Source: an uncultured Phycisphaeraceae bacterium (GTDB lineage: Bacteria > Planctomycetota > Phycisphaerae > UBA1845). Taken from it: a stretch of DNA of 64,000 nucleotides. The notes beneath the pieces were generated by a model that worked only from the letters and a program-made list of their open reading frames with translations, did no database searches and was not told the DNA's origin. The position numbers and the translations under genes were made by a program. The stretch spans positions 5,912 through 69,911 of the forward strand of contig CAZPHH010000009.1 in NCBI GenBank assembly GCA_964586145.1, read 5' to 3'. This document shows, piece by piece, positions 28,210-58,088 of this stretch (the first letter of the stretch is position 1; every line of letters begins with the position of its first letter).

Positions 28210-28261
28210 GCGACAGGCCGGATTTGCCGCACCGGCCGCACGTCGCCCGGTCCGCCGCCCC

Positions 28262-28402: not shown

Positions 28403-28406
28403 CCGC

Positions 28407-28904: not shown

Positions 28905-28912
28905 CCGCACCC

Positions 28913-31397: not shown

Positions 31398-32195
31398 GTG
31401 ACTACGCGGGATCGTCAGACAGAGATGTCCGCCTACCTGGCCGAACACGGATACGCATCCATTTCTGACCTCATGGCCCGGTTTGCCATCTCGGAATCGA
31501 CCGCGCGCCGTGATCTGCAGGAGATGCAGCAACGGGGGCTCCTACGTCGGACGCGCGGCGGCGCCTACTACGTCGGGACTCGAGAGCATCCGCTGAGCTA
31601 CGCCATCCGGGAGGGCCGGTTCACCCGCGCGAAAGAGGAGATCGGGCGTGTGGTGGCCGAGATGGTGCGGGATGGCGACTCGCTGATTCTCGACGGCGGC
31701 ACGACGACGTATCAGGTCGCCCGGCGGCTGCGGGGGCGACCGTTGCAGGTGGTTACGAATTCTCTGCCCATCGCCAACCTCCTCGGGAATGCGCCCCAGA
31801 CCGAATTGGTCTTTCTCGGCGGCTACGTCATGCCGCAGGCGGGCGTCGCACTGGGACCGCACGCCGAGAACATGCTGCGCTCGCTCACCGTGCGGATGGC
31901 CATCATGGGGACGGCCGGCATCACCGAGGAGGGGCTGTTCAACTCGCATCTGCTGATGGTGGAAGTGGAACGGTTGATGATGCAATCGGCGGAAGAGGTC
32001 GTGATCGCGGTGGACCACTCGAAGTTCGGGCGCAAGTCCATGGCCAAGCTCTGCGAGCTGGGTGAATTCCGGCACCTCGTCAGCGATGACGGACTGGAGG
32101 CCCGCTGGGTGAACCTGCTGGAGTCGTGCGGCACGGAGGTTCGGCTCGCCTCCACGGCCGACGGCGAGGACGACGACCCGGGAGAAACGCCATGA
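31398..32195 (+). CDS. DeoR-family transcriptional regulator
   Basis: N-terminal wHTH (ISDLMARFAISESTARRDLQEM) and a C-terminal DeoR sugar-phosphate sensor domain (LILDGGTTT...VVTNS). GTG start. Confidence 0.85.
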   Translation: MTTRDRQTEMSAYLAEHGYASISDLMARFAISESTARRDLQEMQQRGLLRRTRGGAYYVGTREHPLSYAIREGRFTRAKEEIGRVVAEMVRDGDSLILDGGTTTYQVARRLRGRPLQVVTNSLPIANLLGNAPQTELVFLGGYVMPQAGVALGPHAENMLRSLTVRMAIMGTAGITEEGLFNSHLLMVEVERLMMQSAEEVVIAVDHSKFGRKSMAKLCELGEFRHLVSDDGLEARWVNLLESCGTEVRLASTADGEDDDPGETP

Positions 32196-32872
32196 CCCAG
32201 ACCGCCTCGCAGTCCAAGCCGGACCGGGCGCGGATTGAACGCATCGTGCGGGAAATCGTCGCGGACCGTTTCGAACCTCGGCACACGGCCGGCCCCTCGC
32301 AACTCGTTGTGAACATTTCAGCCCGCCACCTGCACATTTCGCAGGAACACCTGGAGCATTTGTTCGGTCCCGGTGCGGAGCTGACCCCGTTCAAGCCGCT
32401 GTATCAGACGGGAGAGTTTGCGAGCGACCAGACGGTGGACCTGGTGGGCCCGCGCCGACGCATCCTGGCCAACGTGCGGATTCTGGGGCCCGTCCGACCG
32501 GCCACACAGATTGAACTGGCTTTTACGGACGCGGTGGGACTGGGCATCGACGTGCCGGTTCGCATGAGCGGCAATCACGAGGGCACGCCCGGCTGCCTGG
32601 TGCTCGGTCCGGCGGGCCGGCTGGAACTGACCCAGGGGGTGATCCGCGCGCAGCGACACGTACACATGACCCCGAAGGACGCGGAGCATTACGGCGTCCA
32701 GGCGGGCGATTCCATGACCCTGATTGTCGAACACGCCACGTGCGCCACGACGCTGCAGGGTGTTATCGCCCGGGTGCATCCAAGCTTCAAGCTCGAGGTG
32801 CATATCGACACCGACGAAGGCAACTGCTGCAATCTGGCGCAGGCAACGCACATACGCCTGGTGAAGGCGTGA
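32192..32872 (+). CDS. pduL: phosphate acyltransferase PduL (PTAC) with N-terminal encapsulation-peptide-like helix
   Basis: Two PduL repeats (VNISARHLHISQEHLEHLFG and VIRAQRHVHMTPKDAEHYGV). N-terminal amphipathic RIERIVREIVADRF. ATGA overlap with deoR. Confidence 0.9.
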   Translation: MTQTASQSKPDRARIERIVREIVADRFEPRHTAGPSQLVVNISARHLHISQEHLEHLFGPGAELTPFKPLYQTGEFASDQTVDLVGPRRRILANVRILGPVRPATQIELAFTDAVGLGIDVPVRMSGNHEGTPGCLVLGPAGRLELTQGVIRAQRHVHMTPKDAEHYGVQAGDSMTLIVEHATCATTLQGVIARVHPSFKLEVHIDTDEGNCCNLAQATHIRLVKA

Positions 32873-32932: not shown

Positions 32933-33238
32933 ATGGCAACGATTCAGGCATTGGGAATGATCGAGACGAGGGGGCTGGTGGCCCTCTTCGAGGCATCCGA
33001 CGCCATGCTGAAGGCAGCCAGCGTGGAGATGCTTGGCTGGCGAAAGGTCGGACGCGGCATGGTCACCAGCTTCATCGCAGGCGACGTGGCCGCGGTGAAA
33101 TCGGCCGTGGCCGCAGGGGAAGCCGCCGCCGCCAAGGTGGGAGAAGTGGTGGCCGTGCATATCATTCCGCGGCCCCACGACGAGTTGTCGGGGCTGTATC
33201 CCGACCGCAGCAAGGTGAAGAAGGGCGCAGGCAAGTAG
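32933..33238 (+). CDS. BMC-H shell protein (PF00936-type hexamer), Arg in pore motif
   Basis: ALGMIETRGLVALFEASDAMLKAA...GDVAAVKSAV...IPRPH. The pore loop is KVGRGMV instead of the usual K-I-G-S-G. Confidence 0.93.
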   Translation: MATIQALGMIETRGLVALFEASDAMLKAASVEMLGWRKVGRGMVTSFIAGDVAAVKSAVAAGEAAAAKVGEVVAVHIIPRPHDELSGLYPDRSKVKKGAGK

Positions 33239-33323: not shown

Positions 33324-33593
33324 ATGGATCAGGCAATCGGACTGGTGGAGACCGTCGGCGCGAATCCGTCCATTCAGGCGGCGGACGCCATGTGCAAGGC
33401 GGCAAGCGTGACGTTGGTGGGCAGTGTGGAGATCGGCAGCGGGTACGTCACCACGATCGTTCGCGGTGACGTGGGCAGCGTGAAAGCCGCGGTGGATGCC
33501 GGGGCGGAAGCCGCCAATGCAGCCGGGGAGCTGGTCAGCGCCCACGTCATTCCGCAGCCGCACGAGGACCTGATGGCGGCGATGATGGGGTAG
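33324..33593 (+). CDS. BMC-H shell protein
   Basis: [24 protein letters not shown]...[22 protein letters not shown]...IPQPH. Confidence 0.93.
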
Positions 33594-33609: not shown

Positions 33610-34779
33610 ATGGAAACCATGAACGTACTGGTCGTCAACATCGGCAGCACGTCCTTCAAGTTCCGCCTGTTTGACATGGCGGACGAGACGGTCCTGGCGC
33701 GCGGCAGCGTGGAGGGCGTAGGCAAGCCCGATGCGGCGGTCACGATCCGCATCGGAGACGACCCGCCCGCGGTCACGCATCAGCCGGTGCCGGACCAGGC
33801 GGCAGCCGTCGCCATCTGCACGGGCGGACTGCCCTGCCGCATCGACGCGGTGGGCTTCAAGGCCGTGCATGGCGGATCGATCGCGGACCCGACGGTTGTG
33901 ACGTCTGACGTGCTGCGCGTGATGGAGGAGTTCGCGGACGCGGTGCCGGCGCACAACCCGCCGTACGTCGCCGCGATGCGGGCGTTTCAGACGCGGATGC
34001 CGGAGGTTCCCCTGGTGGCGGCGTTCGAGACGGGCTTCCACCAGACGATCCCACTCACGCGGACGACCTTCGCGGTTCCGCACGAGTGGCGGACGGAGTT
34101 CGGTGTCCGGCGTTACGGTTTCCACGGGGCCTCGCACCGGTACATCGCCGTACGGACCGCCGAACTGCTGGGCCGGCAGGACCTGCGGGTCCTCTCGTGC
34201 CACCTCGGCGGCAGCAGTTCCATCTGTGCCATCCGGGACGGTCGCAGCGTGGCCAACAGTTTCGGCATGACGCCCCAGTCGGGACTGCCGCAGAACAATC
34301 GCGTGGGCGATTTCGACGCGTACGCCATGCTGCTGGTCCGGGCCCGAACGGGAATGGACCTGGATGCGATGCTCACGGCCATGGCCGGTGAGGGCGGGCT
34401 TCTGGGCATCAGCAGGCTGACCAACGACATGCAGAAGTTGGTGGAGGCAGCCCAGGCCGGGCACGCGGGCGCGGAACTCGCCCTCGGCGTTTTCGTGGAA
34501 AGCGTACGGCATTTCATCGGGGCGTACCTGTTGGCGCTGGGCGGGCTGGACGTGCTCGTGTTCACCGGCGGCATCGGGGAACGATCGCCCGAGGTGCGGC
34601 GGCGGGTGTGCGCGGGCCTGGAGTTTGTGGGCATTCGGCTGGATCCCGCGCGGAATGAAAGGGGCGGCGTCGAGGCCACGGTATCGGCTGACGGCGCTCC
34701 CGTCCGCATCCTGGCGATGCAGACGAATGAGGAGTTGATCGTCGCCCGGCAGACGAAACAGGTGCTGGCGACGCGATGA
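33610..34779 (+). CDS. ackA: acetate/propionate kinase
   Basis: VLVVNIGSTSFKFRLF, HNPPY, FHGASH and VFTGGIGE motifs of the AckA family. No terminal extension. Confidence 0.9.
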   Translation: METMNVLVVNIGSTSFKFRLFDMADETVLARGSVEGVGKPDAAVTIRIGDDPPAVTHQPVPDQAAAVAICTGGLPCRIDAVGFKAVHGGSIADPTVVTSDVLRVMEEFADAVPAHNPPYVAAMRAFQTRMPEVPLVAAFETGFHQTIPLTRTTFAVPHEWRTEFGVRRYGFHGASHRYIAVRTAELLGRQDLRVLSCHLGGSSSICAIRDGRSVANSFGMTPQSGLPQNNRVGDFDAYAMLLVRARTGMDLDAMLTAMAGEGGLLGISRLTNDMQKLVEAAQAGHAGAELALGVFVESVRHFIGAYLLALGGLDVLVFTGGIGERSPEVRRRVCAGLEFVGIRLDPARNERGGVEATVSADGAPVRILAMQTNEELIVARQTKQVLATR

Positions 34780-34842: not shown

Positions 34843-35124
34843 ATGGTTATGGCAAGGCAGGCACTGGGCTTGATTGAAACGCGGGGCCTTATCCCGGCGG
34901 TGGAGGCCACGGACGTGGGGCTGAAGGCGGCAAACGTCACCTTCGCCGGCGCTCGTCAGACCGGTTCCGGATTGATCAGTATCAGTCTGGTGGGTGACGT
35001 GGCGGCAGTGCGAGCGGCCACAGAGGCCGGTGCTGCGGCGGCCGCACGCCTGGGGGAGGTGATCTCGGTCGAGGTGCTCTCGCGTCCGCACGACGAACTC
35101 GAAAAGATCATGCCGAAGAAGTAG
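34843..35124 (+). CDS. BMC-H shell protein
   Basis: ALGLIETRGLIPAVEATDVGLKAA...TGSGLISISLVGDVAAVRAA...LSRPH. Confidence 0.93.
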   Translation: MVMARQALGLIETRGLIPAVEATDVGLKAANVTFAGARQTGSGLISISLVGDVAAVRAATEAGAAAAARLGEVISVEVLSRPHDELEKIMPKK

Positions 35125-35155: not shown

Positions 35156-35479
35156 ATGTTCATCGGCAGAGTGACCGGCCACGTCGTGACCACGCAGAAG
35201 GAGCCGAGCATCGCCGAAGTGAAGCTGCTCGTGGTGGAGGCTTGCAACGTGGAGGGGCCCGGCGGCGCTGGGCTCAAGCCGACCGGGCGGGTACTCGTCG
35301 CGATCGACTCGCTCGGGGCAGGCGTGGGCGAATTCGTGCTGGTCACGCAGGGCAGCTCGGCCCGCATGACCGAACAGACCAAGACGATGCCTGTCGACGC
35401 GGTGGTGATCGGCATCATCGATGCGGTGCGGCTGCAGGAATGCGTGCTGCGGCGAGCGGACGGCACCCTCGGCGGGTGA
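35156..35479 (+). CDS. BMC-P vertex protein (EutN/CcmL family) 1
   Basis: MFIGRVTGHVVTTQK...LVAIDSLGAGVGEFVLVTQGSSAR is a typical PF03319 pattern. Confidence 0.9.
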   Translation: MFIGRVTGHVVTTQKEPSIAEVKLLVVEACNVEGPGGAGLKPTGRVLVAIDSLGAGVGEFVLVTQGSSARMTEQTKTMPVDAVVIGIIDAVRLQECVLRRADGTLGG

Positions 35480-35514: not shown

Positions 35515-36963
35515 ATGGCGACAACAGGCAGAAAGATGGATGAGACGCTGATCGCGGATGTGGTGAGCGCAGTGCTGGCCCGCCTGGGACCCGTTCCGGC
35601 GGTCCAGACGCCGCCCGCCAAGAGCGAGCCTTCTCCCGCCGGCCGGTTCGGCATCTTCCATGACGTCGACGCTGCGGTGAAGGCGGCCACCCAGGCCCAG
35701 CGCCAGTTGGCCGACGGCACCCTGGCCATGCGGGAAGCGGCCGTGGAGTGCATCCGCCACGTCATGCGACGCGACCGCGACGAACTCGCCCGCATCGAGT
35801 TTACTGAGACGAAGATGGGTCGTCTGCCCCACAAGCTCGCCAAACTCGACCTGGCGGCGACCGTCCCGGGCGTGGAAATGCTGCGCACCGAGGCCGTCAG
35901 CGGCGATCACGGGCTGACCATCACGGAATACGCCCCCTACGGCGTGATCGGCGTGGTGACCCCGGTCACGCACAGCATTCCCACGGTGGGATGCAACGCC
36001 ATCATGATGATCGCGGCCGGCAACAGCATGGTCTGCAACCCTCACCCCTCCGGGGCGAAGTGCGCCGTGGAGGCCGCCCGCCGGTTCAACCGAGAGATCG
36101 TACAGAGGATCGGAATCGACAATCTGATCTGCCTGATCGAGAACCCTACGCTGGAGAGCGCAGACCGCATCTTCCACCACCCCGGCATACGGATGCTCTG
36201 TGTGACGGGCGGACCCGGCGTGGCCAAGGCCGCGCTGGTGTCGGGCAAACGGGCTGTCGTGGCCGGTCCGGGCAACCCGCCGGTCGTGGTGGACGAGACG
36301 GCGGACATCGAGAAGGCCGCGGCGGGCATCATCGAGGGCGCCGCCTTTGATAACGACCTGCTCTGCATCGGCGAGAAGGAGGTCTTCGTAGTGCGGTCCG
36401 TGGCCGACGCCCTGATGGCCGCGATGGAACGTCACGGCGGGCACCGCCTGACACCGGCCGATCTGGACCGGCTGGCACAGGCCGTCCTCCACAAGGACGA
36501 GAAGACGGGCCACTACCATCCGAAGAAGGAATTCGTCGGGCAGGACCCGCAGGTGCTGGCCGAGACGATCGGCGTGCGGGTGGCGGCGGACGCACAGGTG
36601 CTGTTTGCCCAGACCACCGAAACCAATCCGTTCGTTCCGTGCGAGCAGATGATGCCCGTGCTGCCCATCGTTCCGGTGGCGGACGTGGACGAGGCCATTG
36701 CCAAGGCCGTGCACTACGAGCACGGATTCCGACACACGGTCATGATGTGGTCACGGAACGTGGACAACCTGACAAAAATGGGCAAGGCCAGTGACGCCAC
36801 CATCTTCGTGAAGAACGGCGCCTGCCCGGCCGGGCTGAGCGTCGGCGGCGAAGGATACGCCTCGTTTTCCATCGCCTCCCCCACGGGTGAAGGCGTCACC
36901 AGCCCGCTTTCGTTCACGCGGGCGAGGCGCTGCGTAATGGTGGACAATCTGCGCATCGTGTAA
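35515..36963 (+). CDS. CoA-acylating aldehyde dehydrogenase (PduP/EutE-like) with N-terminal encapsulation peptide
   Basis: N-terminal ETLIADVVSAVLARL helix plus a Pro-rich linker. ALDH core with catalytic-Cys context FDNDLLCIGEKE, as in BMC AldDHs. Confidence 0.9.
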   Translation: MATTGRKMDETLIADVVSAVLARLGPVPAVQTPPAKSEPSPAGRFGIFHDVDAAVKAATQAQRQLADGTLAMREAAVECIRHVMRRDRDELARIEFTETKMGRLPHKLAKLDLAATVPGVEMLRTEAVSGDHGLTITEYAPYGVIGVVTPVTHSIPTVGCNAIMMIAAGNSMVCNPHPSGAKCAVEAARRFNREIVQRIGIDNLICLIENPTLESADRIFHHPGIRMLCVTGGPGVAKAALVSGKRAVVAGPGNPPVVVDETADIEKAAAGIIEGAAFDNDLLCIGEKEVFVVRSVADALMAAMERHGGHRLTPADLDRLAQAVLHKDEKTGHYHPKKEFVGQDPQVLAETIGVRVAADAQVLFAQTTETNPFVPCEQMMPVLPIVPVADVDEAIAKAVHYEHGFRHTVMMWSRNVDNLTKMGKASDATIFVKNGACPAGLSVGGEGYASFSIASPTGEGVTSPLSFTRARRCVMVDNLRIV

Positions 36964-36980: not shown

Positions 36981-37250
36981 ATGCTGCTGGGCACCGTGGA
37001 AGGACATGCAACCTCGACCGTCAAGCACCGCTCGCTGCGCGGCGTGAAGCTCGTGCTGGTGCAGCCCGTGCGGTCGATGACCGCGGAGCCGGTGCTGGCC
37101 GTGGACCGCATCGGGACCGCCGTCGGAGACGTGGTGATGATTTCCAGCGACGGCAAAGGCACGCGGGAGTTCGTCGGCGACCCCACGTCCCCCGCCCGCT
37201 GGACGATCGTCGGGATCGTGGACAATACAAAGGACCTGGCATTGGCATGA
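36981..37250 (+). CDS. BMC-P vertex protein 2
   Basis: MLLGTVEGHATSTVKH...LVLVQPV...LAVDRIGTAVGDVVMISSDG. Confidence 0.9.
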   Translation: MLLGTVEGHATSTVKHRSLRGVKLVLVQPVRSMTAEPVLAVDRIGTAVGDVVMISSDGKGTREFVGDPTSPARWTIVGIVDNTKDLALA

Positions 37251-37879
37251 GCCGCCCGCTGATCACCGTCAAGACCCTGATCGCCCAGTCACGCGAGGGC
37301 GCGGCCATCAACCTGCCCGCCGACGCGATCATCACGCCGGCCGCACAGGACTGGCTGCAGGCCACCCGCCTGCCCGTGCGTCGAAACGGCCCCGGCGCCC
37401 GCGCCCCGGCGTCCAGCCCCACGGTATACCTGATCGGCGACGCCCAGGAGCCCACCCTGCAGACGCTGCTGCCTATTCTGGAGCGGCAGCACGAGTCGCT
37501 GACCTTCCTGCCCTGCCAGGGACACCTGGCCGGCTGTCTCGATGCGGTTCGCCGCATGTGCGACGGCCTTTCTCAGTGCTCGCAGCGCCGCGGCATCGTC
37601 GTCGTCCGAGCGGGGAGCATCGTGAGTTGCGTGGCGAATCGGAATCCCAAGGTGCGCGCGGCCGTTCTGACCCGGCCGTCGGACCTGTACGGCCTGCAGA
37701 CAAACCTGGACATCAACGTGTTGGTTCTGGAGCAGGAGCGGCTGTCGCTGCGGCAGATGCAGTCGAGCATCGAGACGTTCCTGAGAGGCAAGGGCTCCCT
37801 GCACCCCGCGGTGGAGGCGGCGTTGTCCGGGACTGCAACGGCCAGCGCAAGCTGCATCCCCTGCAACGGAGCGAAATGA
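37247..37879 (+). CDS. BMC-associated protein: EutQ-N-terminal-like segment fused to a degenerate RpiB/LacAB-like domain
   Basis: N-terminus RPLITVKTLIAQSREGAAINLPADAIITPAAQDWL resembles the EutQ N-terminal segment (from memory). The C-terminal half aligns by hand to RpiB (GIVVVRAGSIVSCVANRNPKVRAAVL...INVLVLE), but the catalytic Cys/Thr/His positions are substituted. ATGA overlaps at both ends. Confidence 0.6.
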   Translation: MSRPLITVKTLIAQSREGAAINLPADAIITPAAQDWLQATRLPVRRNGPGARAPASSPTVYLIGDAQEPTLQTLLPILERQHESLTFLPCQGHLAGCLDAVRRMCDGLSQCSQRRGIVVVRAGSIVSCVANRNPKVRAAVLTRPSDLYGLQTNLDINVLVLEQERLSLRQMQSSIETFLRGKGSLHPAVEAALSGTATASASCIPCNGAK

Positions 37880-38169
37880 CCATGCGCGTGGGAAACGTGA
37901 TCGGCACGGTGACTCTCTCGCAGCGACTCGAAAACGTGGCCGGCGGCCGGTTCCTGGTCGTGCAACCGCGCGGGCTGGCCTCGCTGCGTGACGGGTCGCC
38001 GAGCACCGCCGAGCCCATCGTGGCGTACGACGAGATCAGCGCGGGGATCGGGTCCGTCGTCTCGATATCCGAAGGTCGCGAAGCGGCCATGCCGTTCCAC
38101 CCGCGCCTGGTCCCCGTTGACGCGTACGTGGCGGCCGTCCTGGACCACGTGGAGGCCGGGCAGTCGTAA
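37876..38169 (+). CDS. BMC-P vertex protein 3
   Basis: MTMRVGNVIGTVTLSQR...FLVVQP...VAYDEISAGIGSVVSISEG. Lies inside a longer out-of-context track ORF (37558..38169). Confidence 0.9.
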   Translation: MTMRVGNVIGTVTLSQRLENVAGGRFLVVQPRGLASLRDGSPSTAEPIVAYDEISAGIGSVVSISEGREAAMPFHPRLVPVDAYVAAVLDHVEAGQS

Positions 38170-38188
38170 TTGAAGTGAGGCAACAACC

Positions 38189-39379
38189 ATGGCGACGAAA
38201 TCGCTCGACATCAAGCTGGCCCGAATCAAGGCCGACCGGAACTGCAGGGAGTTCATCATCGCGGACGCGAAGGATGCGGACATGGCGTACGGCATCGCGT
38301 CCCCGGGCAAGAGCCCGGAAATGCATGCCCACGAAGCCCGGTTCCGCGGCCTGGAAGACTATCGCGAGTGTATCCGGCAGGTCGTTCACCACGGCCGCGT
38401 CGACGTCATGCTGATGTCCGCCCATACGAACTCCATTCTCACCGTGCGCGAGAAGCTGTTCGAGAACTCCCACGTGACACCCGCCGCCCGGGCCAACGAC
38501 ACCACGGACATCCACGTGGCGCGCCAGGGCGTGTACACGGGCGAACCCTCCCGGCCATTCGAAAGCACGACGATCGATCACATCCAGTGCGGCTATATCG
38601 ACTGCCGGGAGGAGGACCGCGCGATCGGGGCCAACCTCGGGCTGTACAGCGTCACGTTCAACAACGACGTGGAGCTCGACCGGCAGACGATGGAGCGATA
38701 CAAGGCGTTTCGCATTGAGGCGGAGCGTAAGGGCTTCCGGCACTTCCTGGAGGTGTTTGACCCCAACAAACCACAGAACCCCATCGACCCGACCCAGCTC
38801 GGCGGATTCATCAACGATATGGTCGTGCGAATGCTCGCCGGCGTTCCCGACGCCGGCCGGCCCCTTTTCCTCAAGATGGTCTACCACGGCCCGAAGTTCA
38901 CCGAAGAGCTGGCCAATTACGATCCGAAGCTCGTGGTGGGCGTTCTGGGCGGGGCGTCCGGCACCACCTACGACGCGTTCAAGCTGATCGCCGAGGCACA
39001 GAAACACGGCGCCCGTGTCGCCCTCTTCGGCCGCAAGATCAACAACGCCGAACACCAGTTGGCCTTCGTCGAGATGCTTCGCCGCATCGTGGATGGCGAC
39101 CTCTCGCCGGAAGAAGCCGTCCACGCCTACCACGGCGTGCTCCAGGCCCTGAACATCCGCCCCCATCGCCCGCTGGAGGACGACCTGCAGCTCACGAACC
39201 CTGCCGTGGGCCACAGCGGCGGACACACCATCAGCCTGCCGCCCGCACGGCGTGACGGCGCCGCCCGCGCCCCCTCCGGCCGCAAACCCCGCACCCAGCC
39301 GGACTTCTCCAAGATGACCAGCGAGGAGCGTCTGGCCTACCATCGCGGTCGGCTCCGCGGGATCGGAACGTGGTCATGA
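38189..39379 (+). CDS. class I aldolase-like TIM-barrel protein (DeoC/LacD/FbaB family) with ~60-aa C-terminal extension
   Basis: Hand alignment to YihT/LacD-type aldolases: GFRHFLEVFDP ~ strand with Glu, PLFLKMVYHG ~ Schiff-base Lys strand, VVGVLGGASGT...ALFGRKI ~ phosphate-binding end. There is a disordered P/R-rich tail ending in a short helix. Confidence 0.65.
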   Translation: MATKSLDIKLARIKADRNCREFIIADAKDADMAYGIASPGKSPEMHAHEARFRGLEDYRECIRQVVHHGRVDVMLMSAHTNSILTVREKLFENSHVTPAARANDTTDIHVARQGVYTGEPSRPFESTTIDHIQCGYIDCREEDRAIGANLGLYSVTFNNDVELDRQTMERYKAFRIEAERKGFRHFLEVFDPNKPQNPIDPTQLGGFINDMVVRMLAGVPDAGRPLFLKMVYHGPKFTEELANYDPKLVVGVLGGASGTTYDAFKLIAEAQKHGARVALFGRKINNAEHQLAFVEMLRRIVDGDLSPEEAVHAYHGVLQALNIRPHRPLEDDLQLTNPAVGHSGGHTISLPPARRDGAARAPSGRKPRTQPDFSKMTSEERLAYHRGRLRGIGTWS

Positions 39380-40704
39380 CGACCCTCAGACTCGATACCT
39401 CGGGTCTGCTGGATCGCATCGCGGCCAACGGCGTCGTCGGGGCCGGCGGGGCCGGCTTCCCCACGCACGTGAAGCTGGCCGGCAAGGTGGACACGGTCAT
39501 TCTGAACGCCGCCGAGTGCGAGCCGCTGCTCCACAAGGACAAGGAAATGCTGCGGCGCTACCCGGAGCAGGTCCTGGCCGGTCTGGTCGCGGCAGGTGAA
39601 CTGACGGGCGCGCGGGAGGTCATCGTCGGCGTCAAGGGCAAGTACGCCGAAGTGATCCGCCAAGTGCGTCCTCTCATGCCGTCGCACGGCCGCGTCGTGC
39701 CTCTTGCTGACGCCTATCCGGCCGGGGACGAGTTTATCCTGGTCTACGACGTGACGGGCCGGATCATTCCGCCCGGCGCCATTCCGCCGGTGGTCGGATG
39801 TGCCGTCCTGAACGTGGAGACCGCATACAACATCGGTGCCGGAAAGCCCGTTACAGAGAAGTTCCTCACGGTCGCCGGCGCCGTGAAGCGGCCGGTGACG
39901 CTTCGGGTCCCGGTGGGAATTCGCCTCGCGGAGGCCATCGATCTGGCCGGTGGGGCCACCGTTGACGATGCCCGCGTCCTGATCGGCGGAGTCATGATGG
40001 GGCAGCTTGCCGCTTCGCTCGATGAGCCCGTGACCAAGACCTGCGGCGGGCTCATCGTGCTGGGGCCGGACCACATGCTCGTGCGGCGATACGAGAGCCC
40101 GTGGAAGGAAATCGCCCGCATCGGCGCCGGCGCCTGCGACCAGTGCACGTTCTGTACGGAATTCTGTCCGCGCTACCTGTTGGGCCACCCGATCGAGCCG
40201 CACAAGGCGATGCGGTCGCTCGGCTTCGTAGAGGATCGCGAGCCGACGGTCATCGGCACGCAGTTCTGCTGCGAGTGCAACCTCTGCACGATGATCGCCT
40301 GCCCGGAGGATCTGGACCCCAAGAACGTCTGTACGCACAACAAGCGCCGGCTCGCCGCTGAGGGCCGCCAGTGGAGGGTCGACGCCAATCCGGACCGCGC
40401 CCGATTGCACATGGACGACCGGCGCGTTCCGATCAGCCGGCTCATCCGGAAGCTCGGGCTGTCGCAGTTCACGAACGAAGGTCCGCTGGAAGAGCCGGGC
40501 TACCGACCGGCCCGCGTGGTTCTGCCCCTCAAGCAACATGCAGGCGCGCCGGCAGAGCCGGTTGTGTCTTCCGGGGCCCGCGTGCGCCTCGGCGACGTGG
40601 TGGCGCGTCCGCCGAAGGACGCGCTGGGCGCCGTGATCCACGCCACCATCGACGGGGTCTGTGAGGTGTCGAAAGGCCAGGTAATCATCGCGGCGGCCGG
40701 ATGA
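39376..40704 (+). CDS. PduS/RnfC-like flavo-iron-sulfur oxidoreductase
   Basis: GAGGAGFPTHVK nucleotide motif, SLBB-like middle, two ferredoxin motifs CDQCTFCTEFCP and CCECNLCTMIACP. The ATG at 39376 overlaps the aldolase stop (ATGA). Confidence 0.85.
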   Translation: MTTLRLDTSGLLDRIAANGVVGAGGAGFPTHVKLAGKVDTVILNAAECEPLLHKDKEMLRRYPEQVLAGLVAAGELTGAREVIVGVKGKYAEVIRQVRPLMPSHGRVVPLADAYPAGDEFILVYDVTGRIIPPGAIPPVVGCAVLNVETAYNIGAGKPVTEKFLTVAGAVKRPVTLRVPVGIRLAEAIDLAGGATVDDARVLIGGVMMGQLAASLDEPVTKTCGGLIVLGPDHMLVRRYESPWKEIARIGAGACDQCTFCTEFCPRYLLGHPIEPHKAMRSLGFVEDREPTVIGTQFCCECNLCTMIACPEDLDPKNVCTHNKRRLAAEGRQWRVDANPDRARLHMDDRRVPISRLIRKLGLSQFTNEGPLEEPGYRPARVVLPLKQHAGAPAEPVVSSGARVRLGDVVARPPKDALGAVIHATIDGVCEVSKGQVIIAAAG

Positions 40705-41300
40705 CGTTGGAGCAATCACACATGCTCGAATCCGTGGGAATCATCGAATTGACCAGCGTGGGCATCGGATACGTCGTGCAGGACGCCATGCTCAAGGCGG
40801 CGGACGTCCGGCTGGTCCTGGGCCGCACCATCTGCTCCGGCAAATACATCATCGCGGTCACCGGCCAGGTGGCGGCCGTCACGGCCGCCGTTGAGAATGG
40901 CCTGGAAGCGGCGCCGGATGGCGTCATCGATCACTGCATCATCCCGCGGATTCACCCGACCGTATTCCGGGCGCTGGGCGGCGGCGTGGAATTGCACGTG
41001 CCGCACGCCGGCGTGGACGCGGAACACCCGCCCAAGGCGCTCGGCGTCGTCGAGACGTTCTCCGGCGTCAGCGTATTGGAGGCAGCCGACGCCGCGGCAA
41101 AGGCCGCAAACGTCGCACTCTTCCGCATCCACATGGCCATGGCCCTGGGCGGCAAGGGCTACATGCTGATGGCCGGCACGGTGTCGGACGTGCAGGCGTC
41201 CGTTGCGGCCGCCGCGGAAATCGTACGCAGGAAGGGCCTCCTCGTCTCCGCCGTTACCATCCCCGGCCCCTCGCGCGAACTGTTCTCCGAATACCTGTAG
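40701..41300 (+). CDS. BMC-T tandem-domain shell protein (PduT-like, Fe-S pore Cys conserved)
   Basis: Two BMC domains. Aligns along its length to PduT, including the RTICSGKY context of the pore [4Fe-4S] cysteine. ATGA overlap with the PduS-like gene. Confidence 0.9.
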   Translation: MTLEQSHMLESVGIIELTSVGIGYVVQDAMLKAADVRLVLGRTICSGKYIIAVTGQVAAVTAAVENGLEAAPDGVIDHCIIPRIHPTVFRALGGGVELHVPHAGVDAEHPPKALGVVETFSGVSVLEAADAAAKAANVALFRIHMAMALGGKGYMLMAGTVSDVQASVAAAAEIVRRKGLLVSAVTIPGPSRELFSEYL

Positions 41301-41594: not shown

Positions 41595-41618
41595 GGGCAT
41601 AACCTACCTCAGGACAGT

Positions 41619-41648
41619 CTGGATGTCAAGCCATCCAGGAACTTTTTT
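41619..41648 (+). terminator. Rho-independent terminator (plus strand) downstream of the BMC operon
   Basis: CTGGATG-TCAAGC-CATCCAG stem-loop followed by GAACTTTTTT. Confidence 0.6.
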
Positions 41649-41771: not shown

Positions 41772-43346
41772 CTACCGTCGCTCCGGCCCGTTGCCGATCC
41801 GAGCGGCCGCCTCGGCCGGAACCTCGTGCGGCGGAATCGCCGGGTCGCCAGCCTTAGCCAGCCATGGGCTCAGCAAGGTGGTGAGCCCCACGTAGAGGAA
41901 GCCCACGGCAAACAGAGACATGAAGAAGGCGCCGATGGTGATCCATCCGCTGCGGATGCACAGGACCAGGCAGACGAACATGTTGGCGCCCATGACGATT
42001 TCCACAATCGCCAGCCAGGGCACCCGGCGGCGCCGCTTGGAGTACGCGGTCCGCTGCCGCCAGGCCCGCTCCTGCGAGCTGGCCACGCCGAATTTGGGCG
42101 TACGCACGAACTCGCTGACCTTCCCCGTGAACCCCTCCAGCGTGGCCAGGGCGTTGTTGTAGCAGATGCCGATGCCCAGCGCCATCAGGAACGGCAGATA
42201 CTTGAGGCTCTCCACCCACGTGCGCTGCAGCTCACGTTGGCTGCACACGTAGAAGCTGCTGGCCGAACAGGTAGCCACGATGAACAGCGACACGTCCACC
42301 AGATAGATCCGGAACGGGGAGGCCGGTGCCCCGCCCCACCGCAACAGCAGCACGGGCAGCAGCAGCAGCGTGAGGGCGACCATGTACAGGTAGACCGTGC
42401 AACTGGTCAGATGGAAGAACGCCTCCACCTTGATTCGCACCGGCAGTCGCGACCGCAGGATTTTCGGAAGCAGTTTGCGGCAGGTCTGGGCGCCCCCCTT
42501 GGCCCAGCGATGCTGCTGGGATTTGAACGCCGCCATGTCTGGCGGCAGTTCCGCCGGGGAGGCCACGGTGGGCAGAAACAGGAACTTCCATCCCTTGAGC
42601 TGCGCGCGATAGGACAGATCGAGGTCTTCGGTCAGGGTGTCATGCTCCCAGCCGCCGGCGTCCTGAATGCACGACTTGCGCCAGATGCCCGCCGTGCCGT
42701 TGAAACTCATGAAGCGTCCACTGCGATTGCGTGCCCCGTGCTCCATCACGAAATGCCCGTCCAGCAGAATCGCCTGAGTCCGGGTCAGCAGCGAGTGCTC
42801 GCGGTTGATGTGCTCCCAACGGGCCTGCACCATGCCGACGCGACTGTCCGTGAAGTAGTGAACGGTGTCCGTCAGGATGTTCGTCGGCGGCACGAAGTCT
42901 GCATCAAAGATGCACACAAACTCCCCTGTCGCGGTCTTCAGGCCGTTCTCCAGGGCGCCGGCCTTGTAGCCAGTGCGGTCGGTCCGGTGAATGTACTCGA
43001 TGTCGTGCCCCTCGCGCCGCATTCGATCCACCGCGGCCTGCGCAATCTCCACGGTGTCGTCCGTGGAATCGTCCAGCACCTGGATCTGCAGGCGATCGCG
43101 GGGGTACTCCACTTCACACGTGGTCTCGATGATCCGCTCGGCCACGTAGCGCTCGTTGTACATCGGGAGCTGAATCGTGACGCGCGGCATTTCGTCAAAC
43201 CGGACGGGCGGCTTCTTCGGCACGTTCCGCGCGTGCTTGTAGTACAGATACACCAGGTGGTACCGGTGCAGTCCGTACAAGCAGATCATCAGCATGATCA
43301 GACTGTACAGCCCGTAGATCACGTAGTTAAGCGTGTAGTGCGGCAT
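41772..43346 (-). CDS. processive GT2 beta-glycan synthase (CslA/cellulose-synthase-like)
   Basis: DDSTD, FDADF, TEDLDLS and QQHRW motifs with multiple C-terminal TM helices. Confidence 0.85.
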   Translation of the reverse strand: MPHYTLNYVIYGLYSLIMLMICLYGLHRYHLVYLYYKHARNVPKKPPVRFDEMPRVTIQLPMYNERYVAERIIETTCEVEYPRDRLQIQVLDDSTDDTVEIAQAAVDRMRREGHDIEYIHRTDRTGYKAGALENGLKTATGEFVCIFDADFVPPTNILTDTVHYFTDSRVGMVQARWEHINREHSLLTRTQAILLDGHFVMEHGARNRSGRFMSFNGTAGIWRKSCIQDAGGWEHDTLTEDLDLSYRAQLKGWKFLFLPTVASPAELPPDMAAFKSQQHRWAKGGAQTCRKLLPKILRSRLPVRIKVEAFFHLTSCTVYLYMVALTLLLLPVLLLRWGGAPASPFRIYLVDVSLFIVATCSASSFYVCSQRELQRTWVESLKYLPFLMALGIGICYNNALATLEGFTGKVSEFVRTPKFGVASSQERAWRQRTAYSKRRRRVPWLAIVEIVMGANMFVCLVLCIRSGWITIGAFFMSLFAVGFLYVGLTTLLSPWLAKAGDPAIPPHEVPAEAAARIGNGPERR

Positions 43347-43920: not shown

Positions 43921-44013
43921 GGTCGCTTCCCTCCATGGCGTCCGGGCTGTCGCCCGTCCTCGGTCGACTCAGGCCTGGCCACCAGCCGCCCGCAACGAGA
44001 GGTCTGCGCCCCC

Positions 44014-44679
44014 TTACTCGGCCGGCGCGTCGGCCCCGTTGGCGGCCTTGCCCTCGGCCCCGACCCGACTGGTCTTGACGCCTTTGCGGGTCATGGCTAC
44101 GGCGAACGCATAGCGGGCGTCGGCCCGGCGATGTCGCGCGGTCTTGGGCGAACGGGCCACGGGGCCCGGCCCCTTCTCCTCTCCAACCAGTTGAACGATC
44201 GCCTGGGGGCTGTGGTCGCCGATGCGCGGGCGGGCCACTCGAATGATCCGGGTGTATCCGCCGTTTCGGTCGGCATACCGGGGTGCGATGGTGTTGATCA
44301 GCCGATGCGTCACGGACTCGCCGGTGAAGGCAAGGCGACCGCGCGGCTGCCCCGTGCGGTGTCGGCGCCCGCTGCGATACCGCAGCGCTGCCTGACGCTT
44401 TGCATCGGGCATGCCGTCATACGCCTCCTGATGCTCGGCCGGAATCAAGGTGCGGTCCGACAGGAGCTTGTGAATCTGCCGACGGGCCGTCTGACTCCCG
44501 TTCTGGGCCTCCTTCGCCAGGGTGATGAGCTTCTCCGCAAACGGACGGATGTCCTTCGCCTTGGCCAGCGTGGTCTTCACCTCGCCGTGCTCGAGGAGGC
44601 TCTGGGCAAGGTTGCGCTGCATGGCCCGGCGATGCGCCGAGGTCCGGTTCAACTTCTTCTTGGATATACGGTGTCTCAT
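44014..44679 (-). CDS. rplQ: 50S ribosomal protein L17 (extended, 221 aa)
   Basis: MRHRISKKKLNRTSAHRRAMQRNLAQSL...TTLAKAKDIRPFAEKLITLAK. Has internal and C-terminal extra sequence relative to the 127-aa E. coli L17. Confidence 0.9.
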   Translation of the reverse strand: MRHRISKKKLNRTSAHRRAMQRNLAQSLLEHGEVKTTLAKAKDIRPFAEKLITLAKEAQNGSQTARRQIHKLLSDRTLIPAEHQEAYDGMPDAKRQAALRYRSGRRHRTGQPRGRLAFTGESVTHRLINTIAPRYADRNGGYTRIIRVARPRIGDHSPQAIVQLVGEEKGPGPVARSPKTARHRRADARYAFAVAMTRKGVKTSRVGAEGKAANGADAPAE

Positions 44680-44791
44680 GGTCCTCGACCGTCCACTTCA
44701 CGGAACCACGGCTGTCCGCTTCGCGGCCGACAGCCCTTGCGATATCTCTGACTACCTCCGAGCGGGCAGACGCGCCATTCCGGCGCGGGCC

Positions 44792-45880
44792 TCACACACT
44801 CTCCAGAGGTTCCTGCTCCATACCACTGCCGATGCCCTCGGTGTCCGATTCGCTCAGCCCGGCGCCGGGGGGCAAACCCTCCGGCCGCCCGCCGCCGATG
44901 CTCATGCCCAGCGTCAGGCCAAGGTCCGCCAGCTTGCGTCGCACCTCCCGCAGGGACGTCTTGCCGAAGCTGCGTACGCGGAGCAGGTCGGCCTCCGTCT
45001 TGCGGATGAGCTCGCCGATCGTGGCCACCCGCGCCGACTCCAGGCAGTTGCTCGCCCGAACGGAAAGCTCCAAATCCGCGATGGGGCGAGCCAGGGTGGC
45101 CTGCATTTCGGAATCCAGCCGCTCCTCGATCACCGGACGGTGCGGCGTCTCGGTCACGACATCGTGCCCGAGCTCGTAGTACTGGACAAACGGGTTGAGG
45201 TGCTTGCGGAGGATCTTGGCCGCCTCCACCACCGCATCCTCCGGAAGCAGCGTCCCGCGCGTCCAGACTTCGAGAATCAGCCGGTCGTAGTTCGTGCGCT
45301 GTCCGACACGCGTGTCCTCCGTCCGGTATCGCACCCGCACCACGGGCGAAAAGACCGAATCGACCGGAATCACGCCAAGCTGCTGCTCCGGGCCCTCGTT
45401 CTCCTCGGCCGGCCGGTATCCTCGGCCCTTTCCGACCGTCATCTCCATCTCGAAGGGCACATCGTCTGTGAGCGTGCAAAGGAGCTGGTCCTGGTTGACG
45501 ATCTCGGCACCGGCTTCGGCCTCGATCGCCGAAGCGCGGATCTCGCCCGCCTTCGAGGCCGCGACCCGCATCGTTTTGACTGTCTCCTCGTCTCCCTCCA
45601 CCTGCACGACCAGGCTCTTGACGTTCAGGATGATGTCGGTCACGTCCTCCAGCACGCCGGGCAGGGAGGTGAACTCGTGCGACGCCCCCGTAATTTTTAC
45701 GGCGGTCACCGCCGCGCCCTCCAGGCTCGACAGGAGAATCCGCCGGAGGGAGTTGCCCACCGTCGTCCCGAACCCTCGCTCGAACGGTTCAATAATGAAC
45801 CGTCCATATGTGGGCGTGCATACCGTCTCATCCTTGACAACCCGGCTCGGCAGTTCCAACCCTCGCCACCTGATACGCAT
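44792..45880 (-). CDS. rpoA: DNA-directed RNA polymerase subunit alpha
   Basis: YGRFIIEPFERGFGTTVGNSLRRILLSS and the C-terminal domain ELSVRASNCL. ATG 45880 follows GGAGGAG. Confidence 0.92.
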   Translation of the reverse strand: MRIRWRGLELPSRVVKDETVCTPTYGRFIIEPFERGFGTTVGNSLRRILLSSLEGAAVTAVKITGASHEFTSLPGVLEDVTDIILNVKSLVVQVEGDEETVKTMRVAASKAGEIRASAIEAEAGAEIVNQDQLLCTLTDDVPFEMEMTVGKGRGYRPAEENEGPEQQLGVIPVDSVFSPVVRVRYRTEDTRVGQRTNYDRLILEVWTRGTLLPEDAVVEAAKILRKHLNPFVQYYELGHDVVTETPHRPVIEERLDSEMQATLARPIADLELSVRASNCLESARVATIGELIRKTEADLLRVRSFGKTSLREVRRKLADLGLTLGMSIGGGRPEGLPPGAGLSESDTEGIGSGMEQEPLESV

Positions 45881-45962
45881 CGACTTGATCTCCTCCGCGG
45901 GGTTACATCGATGAATCGCGGTCCGGCTCGTCACAGGCCGCAGGCCCGTCTCACCGGCGGGC

Positions 45963-46598
45963 CTAGCGGCTGCACATTTCCACGATCAGTTGCGTCTGCA
46001 CCGCAGGCACCTGGGCGTCCTCGGGGCCGGGCAGCGCCACCACCTGCGCCTCCAGCCGGTTCACGTCCAGACTCAGCCACGGCTGCACCTGCGGCGTCCC
46101 CTCGCCGAGAGTCGCGCGGATGAACTTCTGACTGCTTTCCGTCGGCCGCGCGCCGATCTTGTCTCCCACGGACACCAGGTATCCCGGACGGTTCACTTTG
46201 CGACCGTTCACGTGGATGTGACCGTGCCCGATGACCTGCCGCGCCGACCGGCGCGACGGGGCAAATCCCAGCTTATGCACGACGTTGTCCAAACGGCGCT
46301 CCACGGTGATCAGCAGCGCGTCGCCCGTGTTGATGCGGGCCCGCTCCGCCATCCGGAAGTACACCATGAATTGCCGCTCCAGAAGCCCGTAGTACCGTTT
46401 GAACTTCTGCTTCTCCCGAAGCCGCACGCCGTAGGAACTCGCCTGACGCCGCCGGCGGAACGCATGCATGCCCGGCGGGAAGTTCCGCCACTGCCGCTCC
46501 AGCGGGCACTTGGCCGTCTCACAGCGCACACCCTTGAGGTGAAGCTTCTTGCCCTCTCGCCGACATTGCCGGCACGCCGGCCCCAGATATCGTCCCAT
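45963..46598 (-). CDS. rpsD: 30S ribosomal protein S4
   Basis: MGRYLGPACRQCRREGKKLHLKG...RLDNVV...S4 domain. First 35 codons of the track ORF rejected. Confidence 0.92.
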   Translation of the reverse strand: MGRYLGPACRQCRREGKKLHLKGVRCETAKCPLERQWRNFPPGMHAFRRRRQASSYGVRLREKQKFKRYYGLLERQFMVYFRMAERARINTGDALLITVERRLDNVVHKLGFAPSRRSARQVIGHGHIHVNGRKVNRPGYLVSVGDKIGARPTESSQKFIRATLGEGTPQVQPWLSLDVNRLEAQVVALPGPEDAQVPAVQTQLIVEMCSR

Positions 46599-46672
46599 GA
46601 CTGCTCGCCTGATCCAATCGTTCGTTTCCGTCCCGATTCCGCGGTCGGCACCCGGCCGCCGCGTGGACGGGC

Positions 46673-47059
46673 CTAGACCCGCCGCCGCTTCGCCGGTCGG
46701 CATCCATTGTGCGGCAAAGGAGTTACATCTTCAATAGACTGAATATTCATCCCCGCCGCCTGCAGGGCCGTGATCGCCGACTCACGGCCGGACCCCGGCC
46801 CCTTCACCCGGACCTCCAACTCCACGATGCCGTACTTCTTGGCCGCCTGGGCCGCCTGCTCCGCCGCACGCTGGGCCGCGAAGGGCGTGCTCTTGCGCGT
46901 CCCCTTGAATCCCACCGTGCCCGCGGACGACCAGCACAGCACCTCGCCGCTCAGGTCGGTGATGGTCACCATGGTGTTGTTGAACGTGGCCTTGATATGG
47001 GCGATCCCCCGGGCCACGCTACGACGCGTTTTTCGCTTGCCGGATGCCTTCTTAGCCAC
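46673..47059 (-). CDS. rpsK: 30S ribosomal protein S11
   Basis: [18 protein letters not shown]...TPFAAQ...[15 protein letters not shown] start overlaps the rpsM stop. Confidence 0.93.
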
Positions 47060-47441
47060 GATGCAACTCCTTCACACCCTTCTTGCCGGCCACCGTCTTG
47101 CGCGGGCCTTTTCGCGTTCGGGCGTTCGTTCGCGTCCGCTGCCCCCGGGTGGGCAGACCCCGGCGGTGCCGCATGCCCCGGTAGCACCGGATGTCCCGCA
47201 GACGCGCGATGTTCGCGTTGACGATCCGACGGAGCTGGCCTTCCACCTGGTAGTTCCGGTCGATCACCGACGCCACTCGCGAAATCTCGTCTTCGGTGAG
47301 GTTCTTCGCTCGCACCGCGGGGTCAATGCCGGCCTCCTTGCACACCTGCACGGCGGTATGCGGACCCACCCCGTAGATGTACGTCAGTGCGATCCGAAGC
47401 TGCTTGTCATTCGGAATGTCAACGCCTGCTACACGTGGCAC
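47052..47441 (-). CDS. rpsM: 30S ribosomal protein S13
   Basis: [26 protein letters not shown]...[22 protein letters not shown] start after AAGGAGA. Confidence 0.93.
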
Positions 47442-47460
47442 GCCTGGTCTCCTTCGCCGG

Positions 47461-47574
47461 TCAACCCTGACGCTGCTTGTGACGCGGATTCGTACAGATC
47501 ACCCGCACCACACCCTTTCGCTTGACAATTCGGCAGTTCTCACAGATCCGCCGAACACTCGCTCGAACCTTCAT
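47461..47574 (-). CDS. rpmJ: 50S ribosomal protein L36
   Basis: [41 protein letters not shown] overlap with the map stop. Confidence 0.92.
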
Positions 47575-48422
47575 CTCGATCCCTGCCTTTCGACACCCGG
47601 CGACCACCCCGGCTCGGTCCGTCCGTCGCTCAGCACGTCCGAACCCGATGCAGTGACCGCAACGGTGTGCTCGAAATGCGCAGACGGCCTGCCGTCCCGC
47701 GTCACCACCGTCCAACTGTCCGACGTCGCCTTCGTCTCATGCGTTCCCAGGTTGACCATCGGTTCGATGGCCAGCACCAGGCCCGGCTCCAGCCGGAAAT
47801 CCTCGCTACGGCGCTGCCCGTCCCAGTAGTTCGGGACCTTCGGCTCCTCGTGCATCTGCCGGCCGATCCCGTGCCCCACAAAATCCCGCACGACCGACAG
47901 GTTCTGCCCCTCCACGTACGCCTGCATGGCCCGGGCCACCTCGCTCCAACAGCGGCCGGGCCGAATTTCCTGGACGGCCAGGGTCAGCGCCTCTTCGGTC
48001 ACCCGCAACAGGTGCTCCGCTTCCGCCGACACTCGCCCGACGCCCAGCGTCACCGCGGCGTCGCCGCAGTATCCCTTCAGCCGCACGCCGCAATCGATGC
48101 TGACGATGTCTCCTTCGATCAGCACCCGGTCACCCGGAATGCCGTGGACAATCTGCTCGTTCACGCTGATGCACAGCGCCGCGGGGAACGGGAAACGGGC
48201 CTGCGGATTGACCACCCCCTTGAACAGGGGCGCCGCCCCGCACTCCGCAATGATCTCCTCCGCATGCCGATTCAGGGCGCCCGTCACGACGCCCGGCTTC
48301 ACCAGCCCCCGCATCTCCTCCAGCACGCGGTACACCACCGCGTTCGCCCGACGCATCAACTCGATCTCTCGCCGGCTCTTCAGCACAATCCCGCCGGGCA
48401 CCGGTCGACTGCTTCCCATCAT
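47571..48422 (-). CDS. map: type I methionine aminopeptidase
   Basis: Metal ligand contexts [21 protein letters not shown] and FEHTV. Confidence 0.92.
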
Positions 48423-48488
48423 CTCCGCTTGCCTTCCGGTTCCGGACGCCGCGTCCGCAACCGCCCGCCGGCCGACATGGCCCGGCGA

Positions 48489-49859: not shown

Positions 49860-49918
49860 GGCCTCCCACGTCCTGCCGACCCGCCGGCCGGCCTGATCCG
49901 GGCCCTACGGCCCACCCT

Positions 49919-50365: not shown

Positions 50366-50369
50366 GATT

Positions 50370-50879: not shown

Positions 50880-50922
50880 TCCCTTTGCGGGACCGCTGGC
50901 CGGCCGGCCCGTCCCGCCGCGG

Positions 50923-52716: not shown

Positions 52717-52719
52717 GCG

Positions 52720-58086: not shown

Positions 58087-58088
58087 GG

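Follow-up and report, generated by a model that had tools for sequence, protein, structure and literature searches.

The PVM microcompartment of Planctomycetes and Verrucomicrobia is reportedly covered in work by Erbilgin et al. 2014, Axen 2014 and Sutter 2021. A second described system, which PVM loci can carry, is a pair of redox proteins: Sutter et al. (PNAS 2024; PMC11626177) renamed non-PDU PduS proteins MNdh (metabolosome NADH dehydrogenase) and their shell-protein partner BMC-TSE, and found MNdh in 2,172 of more than 7,000 bacterial microcompartment (BMC) loci, with BMC-TSE immediately adjacent in 97% of cases. The pair occurs without an alcohol dehydrogenase in 361 loci, and PVM is listed as one of the carrier types, 18 of its 20 occurrences being satellite loci (PMC11626177). 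Here we analyze a PduS-like/PduT-like gene pair at the 3' end of a PVM-syntenic operon in a 64,000-nucleotide (64-kb) stretch of contig CAZPHH010000009.1 from an uncultured Phycisphaeraceae bacterium; the whole stretch, with a G+C content of 65%, is referred to below as the window. We propose that the pair is probably an MNdh/BMC-TSE electron-export module of an aldehyde-oxidizing microcompartment, which would carry electrons from lumenal NADH to a cytosolic acceptor. As such it is an ordinary instance of the already published shell-spanning NAD+ recycling pair, and the idea is not new.

The published evidence concerns the purified Clostridium botulinum GRM1 complex, which contains FMN and Fe-S clusters, oxidizes NADH with a kcat of 20 s-1, and shows a BMC-T-type electron paramagnetic resonance (EPR) signal upon addition of NADH (PMC11626177). 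EPR, ultraviolet-visible (UV-vis) spectroscopy and voltammetry were used in that work, and the EPR and voltammetry data speak for electron transfer from NADH to the BMC-T cluster. The proposed path is linear: electrons would leave FMN, cross two clusters and arrive at the pore cluster, the centres being 7-9 Å apart. O2 is the sole acceptor for which transfer was shown in vitro, and the authors also considered a role in O2 scavenging (PMC11626177). Earlier hints of the model are found in Axen et al. 2014 (PMC4207490), and it has already been used by the 2024 paper on SPU compartments (PMC11585597) and by a PNAS commentary. A first-pass annotation of the window had suggested that the PduS-like protein oxidizes NADH and passes electrons out through the BMC-T Fe-S centre. 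That suggestion is supported, in that the same model is published and has partly been shown in vitro for homologues, and the checks that were proposed with it (co-occurrence counts, EPR/UV-vis and NADH oxidation) are largely the experiments of PMC11626177.

The two genes of the pair and their cofactor motifs are located in the window as follows:

39376-40704, + strand: MNdh (PduS-type metabolosome NADH dehydrogenase), 442 amino acids (aa), assigned by Pfam, by NCBIfam (RnfC/PrdC/NuoF) and by RnfC structures
39439-39465, + strand: GAGGAGFPT, glycine-rich motif of the FMN/NADH site, aa 22-30, aligned with GGATFPT of RnfC 7zc6
40135-40170, + strand: first 4Fe-4S motif, CxxCxxCxxxCP, CDQCTFCTEFCP, aa 254-265, from the RnfC alignment
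40267-40305, + strand: second 4Fe-4S motif, CxxCxxCxxxxCP, CCECNLCTMIACP, aa 298-310, from the RnfC alignment
40722-41300, + strand (longest open reading frame from 40701): BMC-TSE (PduT-type tandem-BMC trimer shell protein), 192 aa, assigned by two Pfam BMC domains and by PduT structures
40824-40847, + strand: pore loop RTICSGKY, with its Cys aligned to the Cys of KTICPGKF in 3pac

The PduS-like gene is intact, with a Pfam match to Complex1_51K at E = 1.2e-40, and its domains run in the order PF01512 (aa 15-153), PF10531 SLBB (165-209), 4Fe-4S dicluster (Fer4_17; 253-314) and PF13375 RnfC_N (376-428). The protein aligns with cryo-EM RnfC chains (7zc6; E = 5e-45) in two pieces in swapped order, and the alignment spans GAGGAGFPT, NAAECEP (aa 44-50) and both Cys motifs. 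MNdh is a circular permutation relative to RnfC, in which all four domains are present and RnfC_N is found at the C-terminus. All eight cluster Cys residues and the FMN/NADH motif are in place, and both Cys motifs are kept in 120 of the 120 nearest homologues; the second is one residue longer than its counterpart in RnfC. The first-pass claim that the protein keeps GAGGAGFPT and two 4Fe-4S motifs thus holds with the coordinates given above. MNdh adjoins a BMC-T with a pore Cys, in a locus that also encodes a CoA-acylating aldehyde dehydrogenase (AldDH), and the AldDH gene sits 2.4 kb 5' of the PduS-like gene in the same operon.

The BMC-T open reading frame (ORF) is likewise intact (40701-41300, + strand) and contains two BMC (PF00936) domains (Pfam, E = 1.9e-39). 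It aligns over its full length with the PduT structures 3pac and 3n79 (E-values from 1e-36 to 1e-40; 6.6e-40 for Citrobacter PduT, 3pac), and both Pfam and the PduT alignment describe a tandem of non-permuted BMC domains, as in BMC-TSE. In the 3pac alignment, the Cys of RTICSGKY falls on the cluster-ligand column of PduT, which bears out the earlier remark that the PduT pore-cysteine context is kept. The codon of this residue (40833-40835) corresponds to Cys38 when counted from Met 40722, i.e., to the position of the PduT cysteine, and Cys38 is predicted to be a ligand of a [4Fe-4S] cluster on the trimer axis.

The numbering depends on the start codon. The PduS stop codon and the ATG at 40701 form an ATGA overlap, and the first-pass annotation had described the two genes as translationally coupled. 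We considered this overlap as the PduT start and dropped it for ATG 40722, which is favoured because all 120 nearest BMC-T homologues begin at the equivalent of Met8 and because a locus that is 93% identical (L002) has an in-frame stop 5' of the Met8 equivalent. ATG 40722 lies 17 nucleotides (nt) past the PduS stop, is preceded by GGAG at 40709-40712 (9 nt 5' of the ATG), and is most likely the start of the BMC-T gene. Among relatives, the spacing between PduS and PduT varies from a 4-nt overlap up to 243 nt: the adjacency of the two genes is conserved and the overlap is not. Given the likely start and the variable spacing, translational coupling of the pair is probably wrong.

ORF listing and Pfam place the pair in one co-oriented operon of approximately 31.4-41.3 kb on the + strand. 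Its 5' half runs DeoR, PduL, two BMC-H, kinase, BMC-H, BMC-P, AldDH, and its 3' half BMC-P, 210-aa protein, BMC-P, 396-aa protein, PduS-like, BMC-T. The genes that accompany the pair, and the element that follows it, are:

31398-32195, + strand: DeoR-family regulator, first gene of the locus (Pfam)
32189-32872, + strand: PduL-type phosphotransacylase (PvmB), extended by an N-terminal helix (Pfam, NCBIfam, sequence)
32933-33238, 33324-33593 and 34843-35124, + strand: three BMC-H genes, with the kinase gene interleaved (Pfam)
33610-34779, + strand: acetate/propionate-family kinase (PvmG) (Pfam, NCBIfam)
35156-35479, 36981-37250 and 37876-38169, + strand: BMC-P triplet, with the AldDH and PvmL-position genes interleaved (Pfam)
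35515-36963, + strand: CoA-acylating AldDH of the PvmJ/PduP/EutE type (Pfam Aldedh; NCBIfam NF011927, 612 bits)
37247-37879, + strand: 210-aa protein in the PvmL position (weak Pfam PF02502)
38189-39379, + strand: 396-aa protein ("X396"), without a Pfam match (Pfam, NCBIfam, AlphaFold2, Foldseek)
41618-41639, + strand: terminator-like hairpin and T-run, 3' of the BMC-T gene

We place the end of the operon at BMC-T because the terminator-like hairpin, together with a convergent glycosyltransferase family 2 (GT2) gene downstream of it (41772-43346, - strand), closes the unit. The stop of the 396-aa gene and the start of MNdh share an ATGA overlap (39376-39379), which recurs in L082 and is reduced to a 1-nt overlap in L081. 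An Rfam scan gave no match inside or near the operon.

In the mechanism that we favour, AldDH inside the shell would convert aldehyde, NAD+ and CoA to acyl-CoA and NADH. This enzyme is the predicted lumenal NADH source; it carries an N-terminal extension of approximately 48 aa that, as read from its sequence, is encapsulation-peptide-like. PduL would regenerate CoA, and the kinase would make ATP from the acyl-phosphate. MNdh, positioned on the lumenal face of the BMC-T trimer, would oxidize NADH at FMN and pass the electrons through its two [4Fe-4S] clusters to a third [4Fe-4S] cluster held by the three BMC-T pore Cys38 residues, from which they would reach a cytosolic acceptor (ferredoxin, flavodoxin or O2). 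NAD+ would in this way be regenerated without diversion of half of the aldehyde to alcohol. Direct support in the window comes from the domain architecture, the cofactor motifs, the pore Cys, the adjacency of the two genes, the presence of AldDH, PduL and AckA, and the finding of no alcohol dehydrogenase, PvmO or B12 enzyme in the window; the FMN and Fe-S content, the ability of NADH to reduce the BMC-T cluster and the association of the two proteins in a complex are taken from homologues (PMC11626177). We infer the lumenal location of MNdh, the in vivo direction of electron flow, the role of the pair as sole recycler and the nature of the acceptor.

The direction of flow bears on a different reading, in which reducing power or Fe-S clusters enter the lumen by way of the BMC-T cluster, or MNdh serves mainly to consume O2 so that the lumen stays anoxic. 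Early suggestions for PduT included Fe-S repair and the import of electrons (Crowley 2010, cited in PMC4207490), and O2, as noted above, is the acceptor shown in vitro and has been discussed as a target of scavenging. The operon, however, encodes no lumenal enzyme in need of low-potential electrons (neither a glycyl-radical enzyme nor an activase), its only NAD(H)-linked enzyme produces NADH, and voltammetry and EPR of the homologous complex favour flow from NADH to the BMC-T cluster (PMC11626177). We therefore regard import or maintenance as very unlikely.

The enzymes that could otherwise recycle NAD+ or make use of PduS were sought by Pfam scans of approximately 45 candidate ORFs across the 64 kb, mainly those of at least ~190 aa with a coding-like G+C content at third codon positions (GC3), plus the small genes of the operon; around the PduS/PduT pair, the window covers 38 kb on the upstream and 23 kb on the downstream side. 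Among these ORFs there was no iron- or zinc-type alcohol dehydrogenase and no lactate/malate dehydrogenase (LDH/MDH). Nor was there, in the operon or the other scanned ORFs, a B12-dependent enzyme (diol dehydratase, ethanolamine ammonia-lyase), an adenosyltransferase or a B12-binding domain. The first-pass statement that the locus has no B12 enzyme and no alcohol dehydrogenase is therefore correct for the ORFs scanned within the window. The same scans gave no match to PF00596, the class II aldolase PvmN that is the signature enzyme of PVM, or to PF00056/PF02866 (PvmO), and tblastn of the window with PvmN and PvmO queries from canonical loci (two PvmN sequences) gave best E-values above 1. Besides AldDH, the dehydrogenases found were a 234-aa short-chain dehydrogenase (15383-16087) and a glutamate dehydrogenase (2803-4272, - strand). 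The former was considered as the missing alcohol dehydrogenase and set aside: it lies 23 kb upstream, and its SDR domain covers all 234 aa and leaves no extension. Its gene follows a 5S rRNA gene (14998-15103, + strand, 66 bits), which is the only Rfam match in the window; there is therefore no 16S or 23S rRNA gene in the window.

These scans bear on two further readings. In the classical role of PduS, the protein would reduce cob(III)alamin/cob(II)alamin for the supply of adenosylcobalamin to a lumenal B12 enzyme, which is the function originally assigned to Salmonella PduS (cited in PMC4207490 and PMC11626177). We rejected this role, since no co-encoded B12 enzyme was found in the Pfam scans of candidate window ORFs, and no BMC signature enzyme outside PDU and EUT is known to use B12 (PMC11626177); it is extremely improbable here. 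The second reading assigns the pair an auxiliary task, active under particular redox conditions, and places an alcohol or lactaldehyde reductase (PvmO-like or an iron-type alcohol dehydrogenase), probably together with the class II aldolase, in a satellite locus. Several observations fit such a division: most MNdh loci (1,725) also have an alcohol dehydrogenase, PVM modules of this kind are usually satellites and PVM systems are often split (PMC11626177); two other Planctomycetota carry MNdh and BMC-T as an isolated two-gene satellite amid unrelated genes (L083, 4307-6256; L084, 10001-11877); and the view of the genome is one of 64 kb. Against this, no reductase gene was detected among the scanned ORFs on either side of the pair, and no alcohol dehydrogenase, PvmO-like or PvmN gene was found within 10 kb on either side in six related loci of the same layout. 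On balance we consider an auxiliary role unlikely, and retain electron export by the pair as the probable function.

We compared the operon with PVM loci, using gene names from the BMC catalogue table. It shares with PVM the order DeoR, PvmB (PduL), D, E (BMC-H), G (AckA), H (BMC-P), J (AldDH), K (BMC-P), L, M (BMC-P), and it is syntenic gene for gene, including the BMC-P triplet, with more than 40 loci of Planctomycetota and Verrucomicrobiota. The homologue of the 396-aa gene is the last gene in canonical loci too. The window differs from the canonical arrangement in that it lacks PvmN (PF00596) and the LDH-like PvmO, has a third BMC-H, and has MNdh and BMC-TSE appended. In canonical Pirellulales and Gemmatales loci, the third BMC-P is followed by PvmN, PvmO and then the 396-aa homologue. 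At the corresponding junction of the window (38169-38189), the 396-aa gene directly follows BMC-P and the PvmN/PvmO slot is empty; the same gap is seen in L001, L002, L004, L009, L081 and L082, while PvmN and PvmO are present there in L023 and L046. Canonical PVM is thus ruled out as the class of the locus by the absence of PvmN and PvmO. The same 14-gene layout is found in public Phycisphaerales genomes, among them the complete genome CP070691.

The extent of this exchange was evaluated in 50 related loci spanning the region, the window included. The in-operon MNdh and BMC-T are absent from 26 loci with both PvmN and PvmO, from 16 with PvmN and no PvmO, and from one with neither (L006); they are present in seven loci, including the window and CP070691, all of which lack PvmN and PvmO. 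PvmO therefore occurs in 0/7 loci that carry the pair as compared with 26/43 that do not, and PvmN occurs in 42 of the latter 43 (Fisher tests, p = 0.0035 and 8e-8). The LDH-like PvmO is the only NAD+ regenerator that has been proposed for canonical PVM loci (PMC4207490), and its mutual exclusivity with MNdh fits replacement of PvmO by MNdh. In a tree of AldDH, however, all seven in-operon pair loci fall into one Phycisphaerae clade, together with L006. Because the pair loci lie in a single clade, we discounted the Fisher p-values and set the co-occurrence statistics aside as independent support. Within the 50 loci the pair and PvmO exclude each other, which does not amount to independent replication.

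Several points weigh against electron export by the pair. First, the exclusivity of PvmO and MNdh goes back essentially to a single evolutionary event. The class II aldolase was lost in it as well, so that the change may reflect a different substrate and not the exchange of one NAD+ recycler for another. Second, an alcohol dehydrogenase with an encapsulation peptide, or a PvmO-like reductase, may be encoded outside the 64-kb window. Third, the experimental support comes from the C. botulinum homologues and not from the window pair; in AlphaFold docking MNdh was placed on either face of BMC-T equally often, and in Salmonella the phenotypes of pduS and pduT knock-outs are mild (PMC11626177). Finally, CP(G/S)K is described as the universally conserved motif of MNdh-associated BMC-T (PMC11626177), whereas the window BMC-T and 120/120 of its nearest homologues have CSGK (40833-40844 in the window). 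Only the Pro differs, with Cys, Gly and Lys kept, and CSGK appears to be a clade-specific form of the site and not its loss.

The operon has AldDH, PduL and kinase without a co-encoded alcohol-forming enzyme, and the pair would therefore have to carry all NAD+ recycling. A more specific and tentative proposal, which we hold to be possible and rather doubtful, is the following: the Phycisphaerae clade may represent a distinct PVM subtype that has lost PvmN and PvmO, uses the 396-aa protein as an aldolase-like signature enzyme with a dead RpiB-like/PvmL-type partner as in SPU, and relies on MNdh/BMC-TSE as its sole NAD+ recycler. Were this true, the whole of the aldehyde would end up as acyl-CoA and ATP, with each turnover sending two electrons out across the shell.

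On the basis of its modelled fold, the 396-aa protein is the sole remaining candidate, in the operon of this clade, for an enzyme that forms the aldehyde. Identification at the sequence level failed: there is no Pfam match, and neither the single sequence nor a 42-sequence profile matched an entry in the PDB. NCBIfam gave weak matches over the C-terminal 65 aa, to the same class I aldolase families that Foldseek retrieved. The aldolase assignment rests on the fold because of this failure. In the AlphaFold2 model (pLDDT 70.5, pTM 0.73), the chain forms an eight-stranded alpha/beta (TIM) barrel; after it come a linker predicted to be disordered (aa 341-368) and, at the C-terminus, a helix (aa 378-391) with the motif PDFSKMTSEERLAYHRGRL. 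Foldseek matched the barrel to ADH synthase (2qjg), LsrF (3glc), archaeal fructose-bisphosphate aldolase (FbaB; 1w8s/2yce) and tagatose-bisphosphate aldolase (LacD), with E-values of approximately 2e-9 and target-normalized TM-scores of 0.66-0.77, and a class I aldolase-like fold is predicted. Lys229, located on predicted strand 6, is invariant and would be the natural Schiff-base candidate. The C-terminal motif PDFxKMTxxERLAYHRxRL is conserved in the family, and the helix that bears it appears to resemble an encapsulation peptide. The family is large, with more than 8,000 database relatives (55-97% identical among those examined); the best 120 listed are 61-97% identical, and every named one among these is annotated "hypothetical" and has no Pfam domain. 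In Planctomycetota and Verrucomicrobiota, members close PVM loci at their 3' end; in several other phyla, members also occur away from shell genes.

The neighbouring 210-aa protein matches the RpiB/LacAB-like family PF02502 at 33 bits against a cut-off of 24.7, while the BMC catalogue files PvmL under the flavoprotein-like PF02441. Aligned with RpiB 3he8, it has Arg in place of the catalytic Cys and Asn in place of the His, and its N-terminal ~45 aa contain an ITPAAQDWL-type motif followed by a Pro/Ala linker. In SPU (sugar-phosphate utilization) compartments, which are marked by a DeoC-type aldolase (PF01791) together with an RpiB-type protein (PF02502), an inactive RpiB is reported to be paired with a class I aldolase (PMC11585597). 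The corresponding features of the window are a 210-aa protein that is only weakly PF02502 and a 396-aa protein that has no PF01791 match, yet whose fold is nearest to structures of the PF01791 family. SPU as the class of the locus is not supported, since there is no PF01791 match and the synteny of the shell genes and AldDH is with PVM rather than with SPU.

As a further instance of a printed model, the window does not add a new idea. Its operon is nevertheless a clean natural test case, the layout of which is shared by the complete public genome CP070691. Of most interest are the locus variant and the aldolase-like 396-aa family; with that protein as the only candidate signature enzyme, the locus suggests that the substrate range of these abundant organelles of polysaccharide degraders is not fully understood.

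Elsewhere in the window, two large secreted-type glycan-degrading proteins flank the region: a 1,429-aa protein with BNR repeats and GH88 (19903-24192, - strand), and a protein of more than 1,000 aa with GHL10, CarboxypepD_reg and Golvesin_C that runs past the end of the window (60989-64000, - strand). Both are consistent with a polysaccharide-degrading lifestyle. A block of ribosomal-protein, SecY, Map, RpoA and L17 genes occupies 44000-59700 (- strand), and a negative GC skew of -0.15 to -0.20, sustained from approximately 46 kb on, coincides with it. Between yidC and the conserved part of ftsY, approximately 1.1 kb (28210-29338) contains no + strand ORF of coding-like GC3. Upstream, the ftsY ORF carries a long Arg/Pro-rich extension that appears to be spurious, and a 149-aa ORF on the - strand (28421-28867) has a GC3 of 0.86.

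Finally, we compare the pair with the known systems to which it is related. With RnfC, and with NuoF of complex I, MNdh shares the FMN/NADH domain and the two-cluster ferredoxin domain (E = 5e-45 for RnfC 7zc6); in contrast to RnfC, its RnfC_N domain is at the C-terminus, there are no membrane partner genes, and its partner is a shell protein. The resemblance to PduS/PduT of Salmonella and Citrobacter is closer: PduT gives the best solved-structure matches, the ligand Cys is aligned, and the PduS domain set is the same. The Pdu operon differs in encoding a B12 diol dehydratase, the alcohol dehydrogenase PduQ and PduO/PduGH, which the window operon lacks, and the context in the window would be the oxidation of a sugar-derived aldehyde. 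Unlike the surveyed PVM occurrences, which are mostly satellites, the pair in the window forms part of the main operon and stands at its 3' end. Measured against the MNdh/BMC-TSE module tested in C. botulinum, the window pair has CSGK in place of CP(G/S)K, as do its 120 nearest relatives, and a 4-residue rather than a 3-residue spacer before the final CP of the second cluster motif. The two agree in these respects: (i) the same four domains occur in the same permuted order, (ii) the FMN/NADH and two [4Fe-4S] motifs are the same, next to a tandem-BMC protein with a pore Cys, and (iii) both loci combine AldDH with the absence of alcohol dehydrogenase and B12 enzymes.

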